Shown piece after piece: positions 1,467 to 22,896 of a stretch of DNA of 64,000 bases. How positions within the stretch are numbered: the first letter of the stretch is position 1; every line of letters starts with the position of its first letter. The stretch comes from Promethearchaeota archaeon (GTDB lineage Archaea; Asgardarchaeota; Lokiarchaeia; Sigyniarchaeales; SOKP01). The notes beneath the pieces were generated by a model. The model did no database searches, had not been told where the DNA came from, and worked only from the letters and a program-made list of their open reading frames with translations. The translations under genes were made by a program, and so were the position numbers. The stretch is from contig SHMW01000012.1 in NCBI GenBank assembly GCA_008080735.1, forward strand, positions 20,998-84,997, read 5' to 3'.

Positions 1467-1751
1467 ATGCTTGATAAAATAAAATCAGATATGAAATATG
1501 ATGAGGAAGATGATATGATTTATAGAAATTATGAAACGATAAGAGAAACAATAAAAGGAATTATCGATATTTTCGAGATAAAAATAGCCAACGATGATTT
1601 CTTTTATCAAGCGGGTGTTGAAAATTTAAGGGCTCTGCATGAGTCTGTCATCGATATTTTAGAACTTTACAATTCCCCCATCAAAATTCAGAAAATGATT
1701 GAAGAAATTCGCTATAAAGAGAATCAGCTAACTAATAACAAGGGATTTTAA
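1467..1751 (+). CDS. hypothetical helical protein
   Basis: 94-aa ORF filling an intergenic space with typical composition. Confidence 0.7.
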   Translation: MLDKIKSDMKYDEEDDMIYRNYETIRETIKGIIDIFEIKIANDDFFYQAGVENLRALHESVIDILELYNSPIKIQKMIEEIRYKENQLTNNKGF

Positions 1752-1796
1752 TTACAATTTAAATAAATAAAAAGAAATTAATGAGATTAACCATTT

Positions 1797-4592
1797 TTAA
1801 ACTGTTCTCTCAAACTCTATTTGTATGGTTGCTATAACATGAGGATCTAAAGTTATTCTAATACTCTGATTTTTTATATCCTCTATTGTTGCTTTGATTA
1901 CATTTTTTGGCTCCTCTTCTAATAAATTCACAATAGTAGCATCTCGGATTTTAATAACATCATGAAAACGAATTACTCCATTTTCCATCTTATCTGACAA
2001 ATTATACGCTCTTAGTATAAGATTATTCCCTTTTTCGCTTTTTTTTATGGCAGAGATGAGGATCGCATCGTTATCAAGTTGAATAAAACTCATCTCATCC
2101 GGTAAATATCCTTCTGTTATTTCCTTATCTCCTCCTAAATACAAGGAGAGCGTTCCGCGGGGCTTTAAAACTACCTTATCTAAAAGCCTGATATTAGAAT
2201 CTGTCATAGAGGGAAATATGGGTAAGAGTTTATTGTTGAATTCTTTTCCGTATTTATGGATACTTGCTTGAAGCCAATCTGCTTTATCATTTTCAATAAC
2301 TAGTGAGAATTCAAAAATGTGGCTTCCTAAACATTGTGCACCGGGGGTATTCATTTCTGGACCTGCGTGGGAACTTCTCGTTTTAAAATCATCTCGAGAT
2401 AGCCACTCAACACATCTCAGTAGGGTAAGTGCCAAGGTTATCGTTCCATCATTATTTTTTATAGCTTCATATTCCGGCAAGCCCTTATTCAGAACTGCGA
2501 ATACTCGTTCATTATCACATAAAGCAACAAAATCTTTTTGATGATTAGTTGGTAATGGTTTTTGAACCCAATCTTCTGCATCTGGTAAATCTATATCCCT
2601 TTCTAAAACATGAAAATGCCCGTCCACATGCACTTTATCCGCCTTCATAGAAGAGGGAAATAAAACCCGAAGTCTATGGTCCCTGCTATTATTGAACATT
2701 TCAATTCGAAAATCAATTCTCTTAATACGTTCATAGAGCGTGATATATAATCTTAATGGATTATCTGTGAGAAAACTCTCCCGCTCGTATCTTTGTTCGG
2801 TCAGTGATACGGGGAGTTTGAGGTTCATTTCCATTTTCACAGTCTTTTGTGTAGGTCCATCGACCACATATTGCATCTCTGTTAGTTGTGCATCTTCAGT
2901 AGTATATTTCATATCAAACTGATTATCTTTTGGACCAGAAAAGTCATATTCATCCCCCCAATCGCCCACATCTTCAAATGCACAGATATCATTAAACCAT
3001 ATCCCACTACTTTTATCTAATACGTTAATTTTTCCTTCCGGATTTATATTAATCTGATAAAACTCATTTTGAAAAGTCTCTCCAATGACTCTATAAGACT
3101 CTTCTTTTTTAATAATCTTGGAAGGCTCTTCATCAGGATTAAGATAATAAGTCTTATAACCACACGCCGGAACTTCTGCCAAAAAACTAAAGCGTTTCGA
3201 AATATTCGTTTCTTGTGTATAGCGAGGCTCCTCTTTTATTAAATAGCCTTGATATTCAATCTCCTTTCCTGTATTATCTATTAACTTAAAATGCGAGGGA
3301 AATCCTTCACTTCCCTTTTTCGGGGTAATACCATTGAACTCAACAATATCTTTCCTTTTATAAGGTAGAGGATTATACACGACTAAAGGAATCCAATTAT
3401 TCATGTCATACTTATACTCAATTGACTCACTGAGATGAATTACAGAATTTTTAATAATTTCTTCTCCGATTTGCTCTGCCCAATCAAATCTGGTTCTCAT
3501 TTCTTCGTGAACTTGGTCAATAGAGCATCCACAGATTGAATCGTGAGGATGGTTTTTAATCAACCATTTCAAACCGGTTAAAATATAATCTTTGGGATAT
3601 TTTTCTGGTTGGTTTTTACTTAATATCCAAGTTAATGTGGCAAGAGGCTCGGTATATTTTTCATATAGATATTCTATCGCAGTATTTCTCTGTTTAATCC
3701 ACATACGTGCGGAAAAGACGCCTGAAAGTAGATGTGCATATTTTCCACCTCTAAGTTCTCCTTGAAAGTCCTTTAATTCCGGATTTGATTCCAATACTTT
3801 TTCTATATAGTATTCAAAGTCAGTTTGTATGATTTTCTTCTCTGGATTCGCCTCATTCCATTGTGAAATTATTTCTGGGATCTCTGGTTGTGCTTCATCG
3901 TGATCTGAACCATTATTAAGCAAAACATATGGTGTTGTAGTATAATTCTCCATTTGGTCAACTACACGTTTGATTTTTCTTAATGCTACCTTATACTGGC
4001 CATTTCGTTTTTTAGTATTTATATTCGCTATAGAGCCATAGCTCAGAAGTAAATGAATTGCGAGTATGGAAGTTGCTTCTCCTGGAGCTTTCCATCGGAA
4101 TTCTATATTTAAGTTGTTTTCCTCAAATTCATTTCCAAATCCCCTCCAGAAGATCACAGATGGAATTTCAAATCCTTTCAAAATTTGGGGAAGTTGACTA
4201 ATATGACCGAAAGGATCGGGGATATAACCCGCTTTCATAACTCTCCCCACTTTACGGGCAAAGTGATGCCCAATCATTAAATTACGTATAAGAGATTCCC
4301 CACTAATAAGGAATTCGTCGGGTAATATATACATCGGTCCAATAGATAAACGTCGCTCCTTTACATATTTCTCTATTTTCTCCTTATTTTCAGGACGAAC
4401 TTCGAGATAATCCTCAATGGGTATTGTTTGCCCATCAAATGTAAAACTATCGTAATCTGGATTAGTTTCCAGAATTTCTAATAGCTTATCGAACATAAGA
4501 ACTAATTCTGCTCGAAACTCTTGAAACGGAAGATACCACTCACGATCCCAATGGGTCTCAGGTACCAGAATTATTTTTTCTGCTTTTACCAT
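1797..4592 (-). CDS. glycoside hydrolase family 38 (alpha-mannosidase / mannosylglycerate hydrolase-like)
   Basis: THWDREWY, FDGQ, PDEFLISGESLIRNL, PDPFGH, HPHDSICGCSID. Confidence 0.95.
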   Translation of the reverse strand: MVKAEKIILVPETHWDREWYLPFQEFRAELVLMFDKLLEILETNPDYDSFTFDGQTIPIEDYLEVRPENKEKIEKYVKERRLSIGPMYILPDEFLISGESLIRNLMIGHHFARKVGRVMKAGYIPDPFGHISQLPQILKGFEIPSVIFWRGFGNEFEENNLNIEFRWKAPGEATSILAIHLLLSYGSIANINTKKRNGQYKVALRKIKRVVDQMENYTTTPYVLLNNGSDHDEAQPEIPEIISQWNEANPEKKIIQTDFEYYIEKVLESNPELKDFQGELRGGKYAHLLSGVFSARMWIKQRNTAIEYLYEKYTEPLATLTWILSKNQPEKYPKDYILTGLKWLIKNHPHDSICGCSIDQVHEEMRTRFDWAEQIGEEIIKNSVIHLSESIEYKYDMNNWIPLVVYNPLPYKRKDIVEFNGITPKKGSEGFPSHFKLIDNTGKEIEYQGYLIKEEPRYTQETNISKRFSFLAEVPACGYKTYYLNPDEEPSKIIKKEESYRVIGETFQNEFYQININPEGKINVLDKSSGIWFNDICAFEDVGDWGDEYDFSGPKDNQFDMKYTTEDAQLTEMQYVVDGPTQKTVKMEMNLKLPVSLTEQRYERESFLTDNPLRLYITLYERIKRIDFRIEMFNNSRDHRLRVLFPSSMKADKVHVDGHFHVLERDIDLPDAEDWVQKPLPTNHQKDFVALCDNERVFAVLNKGLPEYEAIKNNDGTITLALTLLRCVEWLSRDDFKTRSSHAGPEMNTPGAQCLGSHIFEFSLVIENDKADWLQASIHKYGKEFNNKLLPIFPSMTDSNIRLLDKVVLKPRGTLSLYLGGDKEITEGYLPDEMSFIQLDNDAILISAIKKSEKGNNLILRAYNLSDKMENGVIRFHDVIKIRDATIVNLLEEEPKNVIKATIEDIKNQSIRITLDPHVIATIQIEFERTV

Positions 4593-10743: not shown

Positions 10744-10787
10744 AATAATTTGAGAAATAGATTCGGAAATTTAACCCGAGCAAGGCA

Positions 10788-10826
10788 TTCATCAAATAAA
10801 TCTGCAAATTTTCTTATTTGAATCAT
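10788..10826 (-). promoter_or_regulatory. eukaryote-like (Loki-type) SECIS element in the 3'UTR
   Basis: Minus strand reads AUGA-U-UCAAAUAA-GAAA-AUU-UGCA-GAU-UUAUUUGA-U-GA-A: tandem G.A core, perfect 8-bp helix, apical A-run and mini-stem, 8 nt after the stop. Confidence 0.78.
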
Positions 10827-10834
10827 CATTTTAA

Positions 10835-11761
10835 TTATTTTCCGCAATTTTTAGATCTTTGTTCATTGATTTTTATAAAGGCTTCTTCTTGTTGATTTCT
10901 AAGCTTAGACTTAACATTTCTATTGACTTGACTAAGAAATTTATAAGCACTTTTTTTGCCATGATTTATATTATCAAAAAGCTCCTCCTTACCCACTCCT
11001 CCTGAAATAGTGAGAGCGGTTTGAAACGTTTGCTGTGGTTCAAGCGTTTTAAATTCGATCTGTAGCGCTGACAATATTTCCGCGGGTTTATCGTGTAAGG
11101 TGCTGGAAAGATCTAATTTATCTTGATCTATATGGAAATCATTAGTCAACACCGTCTCGTAATTTGTAGAGCGGGATATAGGAGAAAATCCCGCATAGAG
11201 TCCGGTTTTGTCATATTGATAAATGATATCGTGTTCCTTATCATAACCAGATAAATCATTGTCAAATCCTTGTAGCCCGTTGATATCAAAGTCGAATACG
11301 AAATAGATATTAAAATCGATAAGATCATAATCAGAGATATTCTTGAAAGTGAAGAATGTATTTATGTAAGGTACCATTGGCTTTGAAAAGATATCTACAT
11401 ATAATCGAATATACGGGTTTTCTTTCTTAAAGTTTAATGGTTCCAAGTCGCCTTGATCTATCAATTTTTTCAAATATTCTTGAATATCAAAATCTAAGGT
11501 AATTCGGTCAATATGAGTGCCTTTTCTACTATTTACTAATTTATATATCGGGGTTGGCTCGATGTTTTTCAATATAACTGGAACAGTTCCAACTTTCTTA
11601 CCATGCATTTTGAAGCTAAACCATGGACCTGCATATTCTTGCTCAGTTAGATAAAGCAAATATTTTCCTTGGTAAGTCAGTTCCTTTAGCGAGAAGCCCA
11701 TAAGGTATCCAGAAGTATTTCAAGTGGCGAGTACGTCGTTGAATGAGACTTTTAAAACTAT
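10835..11761 (-). CDS. putative selenoprotein (Sec14) with a beta-sandwich fold resembling GH15 glucoamylase N-terminal domains; track ORF 10835..11701 is the truncated form
   Basis: SD GGAGG at 11772-11776, ATA at 11761, in-frame TGA at 11722-11720, continuous into the 288-aa ORF; SECIS follows the stop. CDS itself is near-certain, the Sec call is inferred. Confidence 0.75.
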
Positions 11762-11912
11762 TTTTTCTCAACCTCCATAATGTTAATTCATTACTATTAA
11801 ATGATTTATTCATAATAAAATTCTTAATTTTTTGAAAAATATAGATTGATCTGGTGGATAATGTGAAAATTCTAGTTAAGAATTAAAATTAGGATTTTTT
11901 AAAATGGAAAGT

Positions 11913-12878
11913 CTAGATCCTTTCTAAAAATTTATACGCGATATAAGAAAAGGCATCATTCACATTTTCTCCTGTCTTTGCTGAAGTGATAATATAATTA
12001 AAACCATGCTCATCTGCCGCGTTTCGTACATCCTCCTCGCTTATCACGATCTCATCGATCAGATCACTTTTATTGGCAACAATGATGATTGGGATACGAA
12101 TTTTTACTGATTCTTTAATATCTTCAACCCATTTTTCTACGTTTTCTAAGGTTTCTTTTCGTGTTCGATCCACGACTATCATGGCACAATTCGCCCCTTC
12201 ATAAAACCTTTTACGATATGGCGCAAGATTTTGCCCTCCCACATCCCAGATTATGAAATTAATCTTAGTCTTTTCACTTAAATCAACCACATGCTTTGTA
12301 ATATCGACACCAATCGTAGAAATATATTCATCCTTAAACTTGTTTTCGACAAATCGGCGAATTAAAGAAGTCTTGCCAACTTTCCAGTCTCCTGTTAAAA
12401 TGAGCTTTGTTGAATATTCCCCCTCTGGGAGCTTCCCGCCTCTTGTTTGAGACAAAACTTTAATGATTTGAGGGATCTCTGTAGATACATTTTCCTTTCC
12501 TCCAATTAATAGTTCCGCCTTCCCTGCCACATGCTCGGAAAGCACTTTTAATTCAATATCTCCTGTATCTGGGTTAGCAAGCGTCGTGAGGATCGTTTTT
12601 TCTCCTTGTGAACAAAACGAAAACTTCTTATCACCCGTAGTGGTGATATTGAAAAATGAGCTCTCTGTTCCAAATTCTCTTTTGATTCGTTCAATATATT
12701 CATCAAGGATGGCTGATAATACTCCAATAACGGTATCAGAGTTCTCTTGCGCTTCTTCTCTGGTCTCTGAAGCGATAATTAACCCATCCTTATCGACTAA
12801 AGCGACAGCGATGACTCCCTTCAAGCTATTCATATAATTATTTAATAAGGCATTGAGTTGCCGTTCCATTCTTATCAC
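11913..12878 (-). CDS. roadblock/LC7-domain + Rab-like small GTPase fusion
   Basis: N-term VIAVALVDKDGLIIAS; G1 GDWKVGKTS, G2 TIGVD, G3 WDVGGQ, G4 NKSD, G5 SAK; start may be ATG at 12869. Confidence 0.92.
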   Translation of the reverse strand: MIRMERQLNALLNNYMNSLKGVIAVALVDKDGLIIASETREEAQENSDTVIGVLSAILDEYIERIKREFGTESSFFNITTTGDKKFSFCSQGEKTILTTLANPDTGDIELKVLSEHVAGKAELLIGGKENVSTEIPQIIKVLSQTRGGKLPEGEYSTKLILTGDWKVGKTSLIRRFVENKFKDEYISTIGVDITKHVVDLSEKTKINFIIWDVGGQNLAPYRKRFYEGANCAMIVVDRTRKETLENVEKWVEDIKESVKIRIPIIIVANKSDLIDEIVISEEDVRNAADEHGFNYIITSAKTGENVNDAFSYIAYKFLERI

Positions 12879-13431: not shown

Positions 13432-14370
13432 TCATCGATTAGATTTCATGGATAATTCATACGCCTTTTTTGTGAGCGTTTCATATATTTTTTCTATTAC
13501 AATCGCAAATGCTTTTGGATGTTCCAGATTTGGGGGAAGTCCCAGATTTTCTAACGTTTCTATTATTTTTCCCGGTTTTCGGAATTGGAAATCAATGTCC
13601 TCTAATTTGTCTTTTAATTGAGCCTTATCTCTAAATTCATTAATATTGATCATTGGAATATCAAAAGAGAACACTTTATCATTTTCCCGTTTTTCTTTTG
13701 TTATTTCACTCTCCTTATTCTCAATGGGTCCAACCTCCTTTCCTAATTTAAGTTCGGATAAAAGCTCCTTCTTTGTTTTTCCCCTCAATTTTAAGAGTAT
13801 TAAGGGTTTATAATCCACAACACGTGAGATATAGAGTATTGTTGCGGCGATATGTTTACAAGGAATCGCTTTATCGGGACAAGAACATGAAGCATTTAAC
13901 CCTTCGGACACATCGGGATAAAGCGAGTAATTATACTTCTCGAAAATATCTATAATATTTTCTGATAATTTACCCTCTAATAAATTAATTAAATTTAGAA
14001 TAGAATGAGAGAGCTCTTTAATGATACTTTTCCATCCCCCTTCGGGAATTTGCTTAAATTTAATTCTCACACGATAAGGGGTTGGTGCGGTTCCCTGGAC
14101 CATTGCGAAAATCTCTCCTTTGTTAATTCTTAAATTACTCAATCGCTCTTCATCCTCAGCGTACTGAATACCTCTTCTCATACGATAGGGACGTCCAATT
14201 TTGAGGATCGAATGGATCCACTGTTTTCCCCACGATGTTTTTGCATAATTCACTAAATCTCGCTTAATTTGCATAACTTCTTGGTGTTTCTTTTCTTTAT
14301 CCATCGCGTAATGCTTTTCTTTATCTGAACGTCTAAAATTCCTTCTTTCATTCATTTTTGATATCTTCAA
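13432..14370 (-). CDS. SWIM zinc-finger protein (partner of the SNF2 ATPase)
   Basis: R..RG..YA, VQGT..PY.V, CSCPD..PCKHIAA. Confidence 0.92.
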   Translation of the reverse strand: MKISKMNERRNFRRSDKEKHYAMDKEKKHQEVMQIKRDLVNYAKTSWGKQWIHSILKIGRPYRMRRGIQYAEDEERLSNLRINKGEIFAMVQGTAPTPYRVRIKFKQIPEGGWKSIIKELSHSILNLINLLEGKLSENIIDIFEKYNYSLYPDVSEGLNASCSCPDKAIPCKHIAATILYISRVVDYKPLILLKLRGKTKKELLSELKLGKEVGPIENKESEITKEKRENDKVFSFDIPMININEFRDKAQLKDKLEDIDFQFRKPGKIIETLENLGLPPNLEHPKAFAIVIEKIYETLTKKAYELSMKSNR

Positions 14371-14373
14371 ATT

Positions 14374-17300
14374 TTATTTACTTATTGATATTAGATCTTT
14401 GATTTTCTCATCGCTCAATTCTGATATCCATGATTCGCCGCTTGCAATTACCGCATCAGCTAATTCTTTTTTCTCTTGGATTAATTTATCAATCTTCTCT
14501 TCTATCGTATCTATTGTTATGAATTTGTAAACATTAACGGGTTCAGTTTGTCCGATACGATATGCGCGATCCGTGGCCTGTCTCTCCACTGCAGGATTCC
14601 ACCATCTGTCAATATGGAATACAGTATTTGCTCCCGTGAGATTTAAACCCGTTCCACCCGCTTTTAGTGATAAGATTAGGATTGGTGGGCTTCCTATAGA
14701 GTCCGATTGAAAGCTCTCAACTATAGTTTTTCTTTTCTCTGCCGGAACGCTTCCGTGGAAATATAGAATTGGAAAGTCGTACTTATACTGTAGAATGGTT
14801 TCTAGAATGTCACCCATTTGAGTAAATTGCGTAAATATGATGGCTTTTTCATTTTTGTCTATGACTTCATCGAGCATATCCAGTAATCGTTCGAGCTTAG
14901 GAGATTGAGATATAAAAGAATCATAATTTTCTTTCAAAATTTCATAAGTGAGTTTCTTGTGTAAATATTGATATGGGTGATTACAAATTTGTTTAAGTTT
15001 GGTAAGCATGCTCAATATCAAGATGCTTTTTCCTTGTTCTTTACTCTCTCCACTTTCAAATTTATTTAAAATATCGTTTACTAGCTCCTTATACAATTTT
15101 AGTTGCGTCTCACTCAGTTCTACATAAATTTTCATTTCATTCTTTTCAGGTAGATCTGATATGACAGATTTATCAGTTTTAACCCGCCGAAGAATGAAAG
15201 GAGAGATGATGGTCTTGAGCTTCTCAATTGCCTCCTTGTTATGGAAGCGCTCAATTGGGATGACAAACTCTTCCTGAAATTCTTTCCTGCTCCCCAGCAG
15301 CCCTGGATTCAAAAAGTTAAATAACGTCCAGAGTTCCATTAAACGATTTTCAATGGGAGTACCGCTCAAGCAGATGCGATATTGACTCTGCAGTTGGTAG
15401 ATTGCTTGAGTTTGCTGGGCCTCGTAATTCTTCATATTTTGTGATTCATCTACTATAACGCCGCTAAACGGGAGTGTCTTTAATAGGTCAACATCGTTCC
15501 GTATTGTTCCATAAGAAGTTAATATAATTTGATATTCTTGGAGATATGTGCCAATGTTTTTAGGATCTTTAATCCGATTTGGACCATGATGCATTTCAAC
15601 CGCTAAATCCGGACCAAACTTGTTAATCTCTCGCTTCCAATTATATAATACAGAAGTAGGACAAATTACCAGAACACTATTTAATTCCTCTCCATAGTTC
15701 TGTTTGAAATGTTGCAGTAGTGCGATTATTTGAATAGTTTTTCCCAATCCCATATCATCCGCTAGACACAAACCAAAATTAAGCGCACACATGTTTGTCA
15801 TCCATGTTAATCCAGTTTTTTGATATGGTCGTAATTCTCCCTCGAAATTTTCTGGTTGTGATACTTCCTCAAAATTCTGTAATGATTTAATCCTTGAGAC
15901 AATTTCCTCGAAATGCCCTTCAATAACGACTTCATAGGTCGGACCAGTTTCATCCACTCCAACTTTTCCGGCTAAACCTAGCTTTATTGCTTCCATATAA
16001 TTTATCTGACCTTCGGGTTGAGACAGCTTTCTTTTTACATCTGAATTTTCAAAAATCTGCTTTAAGTTAGCAACATCTCGATTATCCAAAAGGATCCATT
16101 CTCCTCGCCAATTAATCAAAGATTGTTCGTTTTCTAATAATTCGTTTAATTCTTCTTTAGATAGTGTTTCATCTCCGAGTTCGACCTCCCATTTGTACTT
16201 AATCATATCATTAATCTGGAACATAGACTTAGTAGAAGATGAGATTCCTTTGCGCTTTTTTTCCTTCTTAGAAGTAATCACCATCTTAGTGGAAAGTCTC
16301 TGCCTTCCCCCTTTCTTGAAAACATCGGGAAGTATGACATTAAATCCACTTTGTATCAATAAATCTTTCGGATAACCCAAAAAATTCATTACTTCTGAGG
16401 AGGAGAGTGCAATTGGTTTTGGATATGATCCATTTAAAGCTTGTCTACTTGGAGGGTAAATTTTCGAAATAGTTCCTAAACTTCTAAGAAGTATTTCGAT
16501 AAATTCCTCTTGTGAGTTAAAAGATTTTAAGAATTCCAATTCTTCACTTTTTTCTGACTCCCATAGCTCGGATAGAGTATATGATTTTCCACTTTTTTGA
16601 GAGTGCAGAATGGGTTGGAGTTGCCATTTTTCTTGATCCACATCGGGGTAATCTAACTTCAATCCTATTGTTAAACTATGTTTCAGAGTGGAAGTTTGAG
16701 CTATGTTTACCCAGTTTTTTATCAATTTTGGAATGATTGTTTCATGAAACTGGGTTATGGAAAAGTCATTTTCATCTTTTAATAGACTTTTGAGGAACTT
16801 ATAATCCCAGCTTAAACCAAATTCTCTGCGTTTTTCTTTCATTTTATCTATATTATAAAACTGAGAAAGTTCGCGAAAATTCGACTTTTTTAACATGGAT
16901 CGGATTAATAAATCTCCAATCGTGTCAATATAATCCGAAAAAAGATAGGAAGGATGCCACAGATTTTCTGTATAAATATCTTTTAGTCCAGATTCGGAAT
17001 TTCTAATAAAATTTCCGGGAATATTATATGCAAAATATGGTGCGTACTGTAAAATCTTTTGATAACGCTCGTGATCATAGTTGTCTTTGAGAATTAACCT
17101 CCAATGACCTGTAAATTTCTTTTCTGTTCTTTTTTCTAAAATTGGAACAAAATTTCCTCTATTTAAGAGTTCAAAGATCAATTTTGTTATTAATGCCCAA
17201 CTTCTAATCGAATCGGAATAATAAAATTCTAATTTTGAGTCATCTTTCTCGAAGATTTCCAATTGATTTAACATTTTTGAAGCGGGCAGTAATGGAAGTA

Positions 17301-17592
17301 TTTTTGCATCTACTTTTCTTATTAGAAAGTGCCCTTCATTTTGAGTATTCTCCGAAATAAAAGCCAGATTGACTTGACAGCTAAGTAATTTATCTAATGG
17401 GATCTCAGAGAAACATCGACCAATACTTTTTTCTAATTCTGTCACAGAATTGCCTTTTGATTGCCATAATATAAAAAAGCTTGCTTCAGATGGAATGTTT
17501 TTACTTTTTTCGGTTAAAATAAATTCGCTCCTTTCGTCATTCCAATACTCTGATGGGATATAAGTCAATTGAAGTTCGTTGATATTATTCAT
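14374..17592 (-). CDS. SNF2-family helicase/ATPase (YwqA/SSO1653-like)
   Basis: LRPYQ, LADDMGLGKT, DESQ, SGTPIENRL, LKAGGTGLNL, WWNPAVERQATDRAYRIGQ. Confidence 0.96.
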   Translation of the reverse strand: MNNINELQLTYIPSEYWNDERSEFILTEKSKNIPSEASFFILWQSKGNSVTELEKSIGRCFSEIPLDKLLSCQVNLAFISENTQNEGHFLIRKVDAKILPLLPASKMLNQLEIFEKDDSKLEFYYSDSIRSWALITKLIFELLNRGNFVPILEKRTEKKFTGHWRLILKDNYDHERYQKILQYAPYFAYNIPGNFIRNSESGLKDIYTENLWHPSYLFSDYIDTIGDLLIRSMLKKSNFRELSQFYNIDKMKEKRREFGLSWDYKFLKSLLKDENDFSITQFHETIIPKLIKNWVNIAQTSTLKHSLTIGLKLDYPDVDQEKWQLQPILHSQKSGKSYTLSELWESEKSEELEFLKSFNSQEEFIEILLRSLGTISKIYPPSRQALNGSYPKPIALSSSEVMNFLGYPKDLLIQSGFNVILPDVFKKGGRQRLSTKMVITSKKEKKRKGISSSTKSMFQINDMIKYKWEVELGDETLSKEELNELLENEQSLINWRGEWILLDNRDVANLKQIFENSDVKRKLSQPEGQINYMEAIKLGLAGKVGVDETGPTYEVVIEGHFEEIVSRIKSLQNFEEVSQPENFEGELRPYQKTGLTWMTNMCALNFGLCLADDMGLGKTIQIIALLQHFKQNYGEELNSVLVICPTSVLYNWKREINKFGPDLAVEMHHGPNRIKDPKNIGTYLQEYQIILTSYGTIRNDVDLLKTLPFSGVIVDESQNMKNYEAQQTQAIYQLQSQYRICLSGTPIENRLMELWTLFNFLNPGLLGSRKEFQEEFVIPIERFHNKEAIEKLKTIISPFILRRVKTDKSVISDLPEKNEMKIYVELSETQLKLYKELVNDILNKFESGESKEQGKSILILSMLTKLKQICNHPYQYLHKKLTYEILKENYDSFISQSPKLERLLDMLDEVIDKNEKAIIFTQFTQMGDILETILQYKYDFPILYFHGSVPAEKRKTIVESFQSDSIGSPPILILSLKAGGTGLNLTGANTVFHIDRWWNPAVERQATDRAYRIGQTEPVNVYKFITIDTIEEKIDKLIQEKKELADAVIASGESWISELSDEKIKDLISISK

Positions 17593-21789: not shown

Positions 21790-22896
21790 ATGATATTAAA
21801 TATTGTTTTAATCTCCATAGCTTGTGTCTTTTCAATCATTGGTTTAGTTTATCTCATACAAAATAGAGAAAAATACGTAATTGACAATACTGAAAAAATA
21901 TACATCTCATTATATTTAAGTTCAGAGACCTTATTCTTCATCTTTTTGAATTTGTCTTTCATAAGCGTGTTTCCAATCCGGGCGGTATTTATTTTCTGGA
22001 AGGTTTCAATTATGCTTAGAATTTTTAAGGTTGCATTTCTCAGTTCAATACATATCTATGTATTATTTAAAAATTATGTAAAATTTTTGCCCGCATTTAT
22101 ATACTCTTTTTTAGGAGGGATTATTGCGAGTTATTTGATTGTAGGAAATTGGTTTGATATTAATATCACGCAAGGACAATATCTTTTTACACTCAATAAC
22201 AATATTTTTTTTCTCTTGTTAATCTTCTTCTATATCTCAATTATCTTTTCCACGATTTTGGGTCAGATGAGAGGTGCTTCAAATATAAGCTTTAAAAAGA
22301 CCACTAATCTCGTCAGTATTATTCTATTTCACTTTTCCATCAATACATTAGTATATCTAACTTTCTTGACATTTCCTTCTACATATTTACGGTTTTTGTT
22401 TTCACTATTATTCTTAAGTTTCTTAGGTGTGTCAGTCTTCATTACCATTAAGGAATTTGATTTATTTGTAGTAGTAACAAATAAGATCTATGATTTTGTA
22501 ATCTTTCACAGATCTGGCGTATTATTGTTCTCATATAATTTTGAGGAAAATAAAGAAATTGATGATTCCCTATTGAAGGGGTCAATATTAATCGGTATTA
22601 ATCATATTCTTTCGAATTTTATTAACAAGAAAAGCAAATTAAATATTATTAAAATGAAAGAACGAGATATCATCTTTGAGTACGATGATAATTTTGGTTA
22701 TGCAATCTTAGTAATAGTCAGCCATCGCAATAAAATAGTAGAGAAGGCAGTAAACTTGTTTATGAAGGACTTTACAGAACATAATGGACAAATATTAGAA
22801 AAAATCAATAAACAGGCTCAATTAATAGATGTTTCGGCATTTAAAAATTCAAAAAAAATAATAGAACGATATTTTAAACCATATCTCACCATATAA
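21790..22896 (+). CDS. 7TM membrane protein with C-terminal longin-like domain
   Basis: 7 hydrophobic helices, then IFHRSGVLLFSY..LIGINHILSNF..IIFEY..GYAILVI. Confidence 0.75.
   Translation: MILNIVLISIACVFSIIGLVYLIQNREKYVIDNTEKIYISLYLSSETLFFIFLNLSFISVFPIRAVFIFWKVSIMLRIFKVAFLSSIHIYVLFKNYVKFLPAFIYSFLGGIIASYLIVGNWFDINITQGQYLFTLNNNIFFLLLIFFYISIIFSTILGQMRGASNISFKKTTNLVSIILFHFSINTLVYLTFLTFPSTYLRFLFSLLFLSFLGVSVFITIKEFDLFVVVTNKIYDFVIFHRSGVLLFSYNFEENKEIDDSLLKGSILIGINHILSNFINKKSKLNIIKMKERDIIFEYDDNFGYAILVIVSHRNKIVEKAVNLFMKDFTEHNGQILEKINKQAQLIDVSAFKNSKKIIERYFKPYLTI

Follow-up and report, generated by a model that had tools for sequence, protein, structure and literature searches.

A probable selenoprotein family, previously unlisted, on a predicted beta-supersandwich scaffold in Asgard archaea

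Five selenoprotein families have been described in Lokiarchaeota (Mariotti 2016). Seven are now listed for the Asgard archaea as a whole, namely SelD, VhuU/FrhA, HdrA, VhuD/FrhD, PrxL, AhpF-N and a DsbA-like family (PMC4989117, PMC11227280). They were found mostly by homology to selenoproteins already known, and all are shared with bacteria or methanogens (PMC11227280, Huang 2024). For prokaryotes in general, Table 1 of a 2026 review lists 119 families (PMC13188914). The gene studied here belongs to a family that matches none of the seven Asgard or 119 prokaryotic families (PMC11227280, PMC13188914). Pfam, NCBIfam and PDB sequence searches with its protein returned nothing significant, no counterpart turned up among bacterial or methanogen selenoproteins, and further searching of the literature outside subscription papers yielded no description of the family. 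This agrees with an earlier note on the same DNA, which had claimed that the protein resembles no known Loki selenoprotein. The recoding system is a known one; the family and its scaffold are previously unlisted.

The window, the whole stretch of 64,000 nucleotides that was analysed, comes from contig SHMW01000012.1 of a Promethearchaeota genome and carries the gene on its minus strand (Table 1). Gene neighbours and relatives point to Lokiarchaeia/Promethearchaeota. The ATG at which the gene is called (11701) is codon 21 of a longer frame that opens with ATA and contains a single in-frame TGA. Public gene calls for the family also begin at this Met21 (P0001, P0006), and the database label is that of an N-truncated hypothetical protein. 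The Shine-Dalgarno-like motif, ATA, TGA, reading frame and single Cys had all been described in the earlier note, and the description proved correct when the minus strand was re-read.

Table 1 Features of the locus in window positions, and of related loci where a locus name is given
Feature	Position	Strand	Basis or remark
Shine-Dalgarno-like GGAGG	11772..11776	-	Sequence; 10 nt ahead of the ATA
Probable non-canonical ATA start codon	11759..11761	-	Orthologue comparison
In-frame TGA, predicted selenocysteine 14 (codon 14)	11720..11722	-	TGA in 35/35 family orthologues; aligns to Cys codons
Full CDS, ATA to TAA (10837-10835), 308 codons/aa	10835..11761	-	Predicted beta-supersandwich (residues ~1-256), two linker-type helices and C-terminal tail
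Conserved acidic motif D157-F-D159-x-x-G162 ... D169 ... Q182-Y-D184	11210..11293	-	Invariant or near-invariant columns
Cys306, sole Cys in the protein; candidate resolving partner of Sec14	10844..10846	-	Orthologue conservation
Eukaryote-like SECIS core: AUGA, 8-bp upper helix, adenine-rich loop, GA	10788..10826	-	Model, position, conservation
Small 3' side hairpin	10774..10786	-	Alignment and model match, predicted in fold; common to PrxL, VhuD and VhuU SECIS of the genome
Roadblock/LC7 domain fused to Rab-like small GTPase, 321 aa, upstream neighbour	11913..12878	-	Pfam
Frameshifting inserts, genus g11	L093:1248-1279, L094:389-417, L095:406-436, L096:1253-1280, L097:388-418		

The in-frame TGA is conserved throughout the family of the host genome (f1). 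An orthologue occurs in 34 of the 36 other f1 genomes; every one has a single in-frame TGA, and it lies at codon 14. TGA occupies this codon in all 35 f1 orthologues. Differences among orthologues in codons 2-13 fall at codon positions 1, 2 and 3 with frequencies of 0.34, 0.19 and 0.64, close to the pattern of codons 21-40 (0.27, 0.16 and 0.54) and unlike the 5' UTR (0.61, 0.61 and 0.59). As in the remainder of the gene, changes ahead of the TGA are concentrated at third positions, and this variation is of the coding type. In ten loci of a second family (f2), codon 14 is TGT or TGC and forms the second Cys of a CxxC motif; it is never TGG. Two single-contig f2 genomes both carry the Cys form, which may have helped the family to escape notice. 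Nor is this a Trp code, because TGA is an ordinary stop in the host genome, where it terminates 292 of 1679 long ORFs. The earlier note had proposed a selenoprotein here, and its proposal is supported by the conserved sequence upstream of the TGA, by the alignment of that codon with TGA or Cys codons, with coding sequence on either side, and, as described below, by a conserved hairpin and by the Sec machinery of the genome.

Across the wider family, all 37 aligned members have Cys or Sec at position 14, the sole chalcogen site that they all keep. The motif is CxxU in genus g8 of f1, in f3, f4 and f28 and in Thorarchaeia, and CxxCxxC in another group. A further Cys is found in every lineage, at a site that varies: Cys11 alone in Thorarchaeia and f28, Cys306 alone in 31 of the 35 f1 members, and both in g8, f2 and f4. 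Cys306 is near-invariant in f1, f2 and f4 and is missing from Thorarchaeia, from f28 and from the CxxCxxC group, and Cys11 has been lost in most of f1, the lineage of the window included. In the three f28 loci (L098, L099 and L107), the frame ahead of CxxU reads G-U-U-C, which could represent additional Sec residues or untranslated sequence.

The host genome encodes the components needed to read UGA in this way. SelD (whose own gene contains a TGA), SepSecS and EFSec were identified, together with a PSTK homologue whose match (E 2e-52) is below the curated cut-off. A tRNA-Sec with a UCA anticodon lies about 0.9 kb upstream of SepSecS (G000:C15:60231-60370, minus strand). It was located with the tRNA of a congener as query, and four congeners have a tRNA-Sec match. 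ARAGORN and Rfam missed it because it is interrupted by two introns, one of 22 nt in the anticodon loop and one of 29 nt in the T loop.

The 3' UTR contains a hairpin whose AUGA begins at 10826, 8 nt past the stop codon. Its helix pairs 10821-10814 with 10799-10792, its A-rich loop is 14 nt long (most orthologues have a type II mini-stem) and the GA is at 10790-10789. The earlier note had recognized this element as a eukaryote-like SECIS, and its core and position stand, but the small 3' side hairpin had been overlooked. We built a covariance model from seven SECIS of the host genome only (two PrxL, four VhuD and one VhuU), and this model scores the hairpin at 43.4 bits (E ~4e-9), the best in the 64 kb, with the runner-up at 18.3 bits. 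The model also detects a hairpin in the equivalent position downstream of 34 of 35 f1 TGA orthologues, versus 0 of 10 Cys orthologues. Over 31 copies, which are related to one another, 97% of the helix cells are paired and four of the eight pairs show compensatory change. None of 500 shuffles reached these values for cells paired and covariation score, and slid registers were at most 58% paired. The folding energy is no better than that of shuffles (z +1.0), and the bare SECIS pattern matches 153 times in the genome versus 79-92 times in shuffles, about 1.8-fold. Because neither of these discriminates, the assignment relies on the model, the position and the conservation of the element. Rfam gave no match to a SECIS family, only three chance matches. 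The second-best match to our model (22558-22623, minus strand; 18 bits, E 0.015) lies opposite an ORF and is probably due to chance.

More distant relatives have other 3' elements, and the f1-trained model does not score the hairpins of Thorarchaeia, f4 or f28. In six Thorarchaeia-type loci, read by eye, the UGA stop falls within an AUGA that opens a hairpin of different sequence, and in five of the six the loop reads GUAAA. No recognizable SECIS was found within 400 nt of the stop in three f4 orthologues with TGA. What the f4 3' UTRs (L036, L041 and L047) have in common is a GC-rich hairpin of another kind, which lies about 8 nt past the stop and is possibly a variant insertion signal. A conserved 3' hairpin that does not fit the f1 model is likewise present in the three f28 loci.

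Several other frames of the host genome may also encode selenoproteins. A HesB-like frame with an S-U-x4-C motif precedes a SECIS of 28 bits (L074:2196-2582:+, G000:C89). Homologues that contain a TGA occur in 8 of 12 f1 genomes, and many of them are arranged as tandem pairs; this is probably another unlisted Asgard selenoprotein. A frame guessed from its sequence to be ubiquitin- or MoaD-like (L077:308-793:-, G000:C7) contains G-C-U-U followed by about 30 codons and a SECIS of 30 bits, with matches in 16 of 20 relatives from four families, nearly all of which have two TGAs. A zinc-ribbon frame of about 39 codons (CxxC ... CxxU) adjoins two PrxL selenoprotein genes and lies before a SECIS of 56 bits (L069, about 1750-1880, minus strand; G000:C10). 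Finally, a short hydrophobic frame with G-U-A-C lies before a SECIS of 64 bits (L076:2143-2355:+, G000:C102) and is a candidate small membrane selenoprotein.

A search of a 400-genome sample of the phylum found the gene in 123 of 134 f1 genomes (92%), 11 of 14 f2, 4 of 4 f4 and 5 of 5 f28 genomes, nearly always in single copy. It was also present in 69 of the 89 genomes of a group dominated by f31; we assign f31 to Thorarchaeia on the grounds that its orthologues cluster with Thorarchaeota proteins from NCBI. No copy was found in families f8-f20 among the genomes searched, and the Atlas feature search returned only Promethearchaeota and Thorarchaeota clusters. In a tree rooted with secreted homologues, Sec forms occupy three deep branches and Cys forms occur only within the Lokiarchaeia branch (support only 94/91), for a total of three changes. 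The topology fits an old Sec with two reversions to Cys, although the deep forks are weakly resolved. Genus g8, with its CxxU motif, is sister to the remaining f1 (support 100/99); on this topology the loss of Cys11 is apparently a derived state.

Five full-length f1 matches lacked a TGA call. All belong to genus g11, and each contains an insert of 28-32 nt one base past the UGA (Table 1). In each insert a 4-bp helix can form at the centre, accompanied by two 3-nt bulges and an intron hairpin; the helix between the exons is weak. If both bulges are cut behind their second base, the predicted product has U-N-x-x-G-Y and a frame of 305-307 aa in all five cases, and from their sequences we classify the inserts as tRNA-type bulge-helix-bulge introns. 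Because the predicted splicing restores exactly the frame upstream of the Sec codon, these introns provide independent support for the coding nature of that segment. The gene in the window itself has no intron. Considering the conserved codon, the 3' UTR SECIS, EFSec and tRNA-Sec together, we conclude that the UGA at codon 14 is almost certainly read as Sec.

The start codon is less conventional. Position 1 is an Ile codon in 23 orthologues, which are kin and not independent; it is ATA in 21 of them and ATC in two, compared with a genome-wide ATA share of 29% of Ile codons. In L025 and most Cys-type orthologues position 1 is ATG, other orthologues have ATG or GTG at or beside it, and in most orthologues a Shine-Dalgarno-like motif lies 8-12 nt ahead of codon 1. 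This comparative evidence strongly suggests AUA initiation. Translation would very probably proceed from the ATA, hence with low output, and would depend on selenium. A scan for sigma-70 promoters, a consensus unsuited to archaea, stayed at chance level.

The predicted structure places the protein on a scaffold shared with carbohydrate-active enzymes. The AlphaFold2 model is of high confidence (pLDDT 92.5, pTM 0.90; pLDDT 90.7 for a Cys-type orthologue). Its closest structural counterpart is the beta-supersandwich, with linker, at the N-terminus of GH15, GH94 and GH116 enzymes (Z 18-20, rmsd 2.5-3.4 over 214-238 residues), which bears out the earlier guess of a sandwich of the GH15 N-terminal type. 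The catalytic (alpha/alpha)6 barrel is absent: beyond the sandwich there are two helices, the protein finishes at residue 308, and all orthologues stop there. Modelling thus shows a stand-alone, non-catalytic beta-supersandwich with linker helices of the GH15/GH94 type. The first strand begins at residue 3, residues 3-14 form the first strands of the fold, and no signal peptide is evident. The tail is the least confident part of the model (pLDDT 68-73). In the Cys-type model, isolated beta-bridges with unreported partners occur at residue 17, beside the CxxC, and at residue 312, beside the last Cys, and could weakly hint at docking of the tail. Two other assignments were considered and rejected. 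An aldose 1-epimerase (galactose mutarotase) has a weaker structural match (Z 12-13), and no His or Glu, the catalytic residues of such enzymes, reaches 85% conservation among 37 members. A thioredoxin-fold selenoprotein such as PrxL, DsbA or SelW would be alpha/beta and have its motif where a helix begins, but the model consists almost entirely of beta structure and places the motif in a beta-hairpin.

Distant sequence matches cover residues 120-270 and are modules of large, often secreted proteins with PKD, CARDB, S8 and transglutaminase domains. The conserved acidic motif (Table 1) is in this shared stretch and may be a ligand or Ca2+ site.

Directly upstream, on the same strand, the gene for a Roadblock-Rab fusion accompanies the selenoprotein gene at 33 of the 34 f1 loci that could be assessed and at 8 of the 9 f2 loci, a pairing absent in f3, f4 and Thorarchaeia loci. 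The fusion protein is 45-68% identical across most f1 and f2 loci, and the gene pair is kept across the two families although the selenoproteins are only ~25% identical. Counting against a functional link, GTPase genes of MK-D1 are reportedly not as a rule in operons with their regulators (PMC10933270). From synteny, a functional link between the selenoprotein and the Roadblock-Rab GTPase is conceivable. A complex prediction for a Cys-type orthologue and its Roadblock-Rab neighbour, with Zn and GTP included, scored 0.00 and counts neither way. No recurrent redox partner gene was found beside the selenoprotein orthologues in the loci compared. Elsewhere on the minus strand of the window (13432-17592) are genes for a SWIM-type zinc-finger protein and, directly after it, a SNF2-family helicase, by motif reading, an ordinary prokaryotic pair.

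Our best guess at function, offered tentatively, is that this is a cytoplasmic selenoprotein acting as a selenol-thiol redox switch. Sec14 would sit in an exposed N-terminal hairpin and be the reactive centre, and oxidation would join it in a selenenyl-sulfide bond to a resolving Cys, which would be Cys11 in the CxxU forms and the C-terminal Cys306 in the lineage of the window. A Sec14-Cys306 bond, as a candidate redox pair, would tether the C-terminal helix to the edge of the sandwich. This could alter the binding of a ligand, either a glycan or a partner protein, at the acidic motif, so that the redox state would be passed on as a signal and not serve bulk catalysis. A reactive Sec with a resolving Cys is the best reading because one chalcogen is fixed while the second Cys moves among positions 11, 17 and 306. 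A regulatory switch is favoured over both a metal site and an enzyme because there are no catalytic residues and no redox neighbours.

Sec14 and the Cys residues could instead coordinate a metal or metalloid (Zn, an Fe–S cluster, As or Hg) through three ligands of a single chain or four of a dimer. The site would then serve a structural, carrier or sensing role. The CxxU-G of Thorarchaeia resembles a zinc knuckle, and both this CxxCG-like knuckle and the motif of the CxxCxxC group would suit a metal site as well as a redox pair. Three chalcogens are kept in g8, f2 and f4, and CxxCxxC appears where the C-terminal Cys is missing. Only two chalcogens are present, however, in 31 of 35 f1 members, that of the window included, and in all Thorarchaeia examined, and no conserved His is available to complete the site, which makes this alternative rather unlikely.

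A true oxidoreductase on a new scaffold would use Sec14 to reduce a peroxide, a disulfide or an oxidized substrate bound by the sandwich, and the resolving Cys would recycle the Sec. Such an enzyme would be in line with most characterized selenoproteins, which are thiol oxidoreductases with CxxU or UxxC (PMC13188914). The retention of Sec on three deep branches also suggests a rate advantage. We nevertheless consider an enzyme unlikely, given that the protein has neither a thioredoxin fold nor another known redox fold, that no redox partner recurs nearby, and that the weak start codon points to low abundance.

A split glycoside hydrolase or phosphorylase, in which this protein would be the regulatory half and would associate in trans with a barrel encoded elsewhere, is very improbable. 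The fold is exactly the N-terminal domain and linker of GH15/GH94, and one family member has a weak TIGR01577 match (E 0.0018), but a search of the 93%-complete genome for catalytic domains of the GH15 or GDE_C type found none, and the one GH94 that it encodes is a frame of 921 aa, which leaves room for an N-domain of its own. The idea that the TGA is a real stop before a gene starting at Met21, or is read as Trp, draws on the public gene calls and on the f4 orthologues without a recognizable SECIS, and is scarcely credible against the coding-type variation upstream, the alignment of TGA with Cys and never TGG, its use as a stop, the presence of SECIS in step with TGA, the five frameshifting introns that restore the upstream frame and the place of residues 3-14 in the fold.

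Returning to the redox switch, one could combine the evidence into a bolder picture, which we regard as improbable as a whole: an ancient, Asgard-specific selenoprotein whose fold is of the sugar-binding type would use selenium to switch in response to redox state or metal, would regulate the neighbouring Roadblock-Rab GTPase and would be expressed through three gates, namely the AUA start, UGA recoding and, in some lineages, tRNA-type intron splicing at the Sec codon. If true, it would link selenium and redox state to eukaryote-like signalling.

Compared with known systems, the gene resembles those with lokiSECIS or eSECIS-like elements in having an in-frame UGA at a Cys-equivalent site and, just past the stop, an AUGA/GA core with a stem of ~9 bp and apical adenines. 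Its type II mini-stem is like that of selD, for which this form has mainly been reported (PMC11227280), and in the Thorarchaeia orthologues the stop overlaps the AUGA and the loop starts with GUAAA, as in Thor frhA (PMC4989117, PMC11227280). It differs from the seven Asgard families in its unrelated protein and its ATA start. The GH15 glucoamylase/glucodextranase structures (1lf6, 1ulv), the GH94 phosphorylases (2cqs, 1v7v) and GH116 have the same fold over residues 1-282, at 10-14% identity, and are unlike the selenoprotein in that the latter is stand-alone and has an N-terminal CxxU-type motif and a C-terminal Cys. Likewise, the wider family shares CxxU, and probably a Sec with a resolving Cys, with the CxxU/UxxC thiol-oxidoreductase selenoproteins (thioredoxin fold, SelW-like, GrdA), but it lacks the thioredoxin fold, and the lineage of the window lacks the first Cys and has its only Cys 292 residues away. 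A bulge-helix-bulge intron is known in the crenarchaeal cbf5 pre-mRNA; the inserts of the five g11 orthologues are like it in the 4-bp central helix and two 3-nt bulges and unlike it in their weak exon-exon helix and their location one base past the Sec codon, adding a case of an mRNA intron at such a codon. The family occurs in 92% of the genomes searched from its own family and in most of the Thorarchaeia searched, on a scaffold listed for no selenoprotein, and its matched orthologues of the Sec and Cys types, some followed by a SECIS and others not, could serve as a test set for how an eSECIS works without SBP2.
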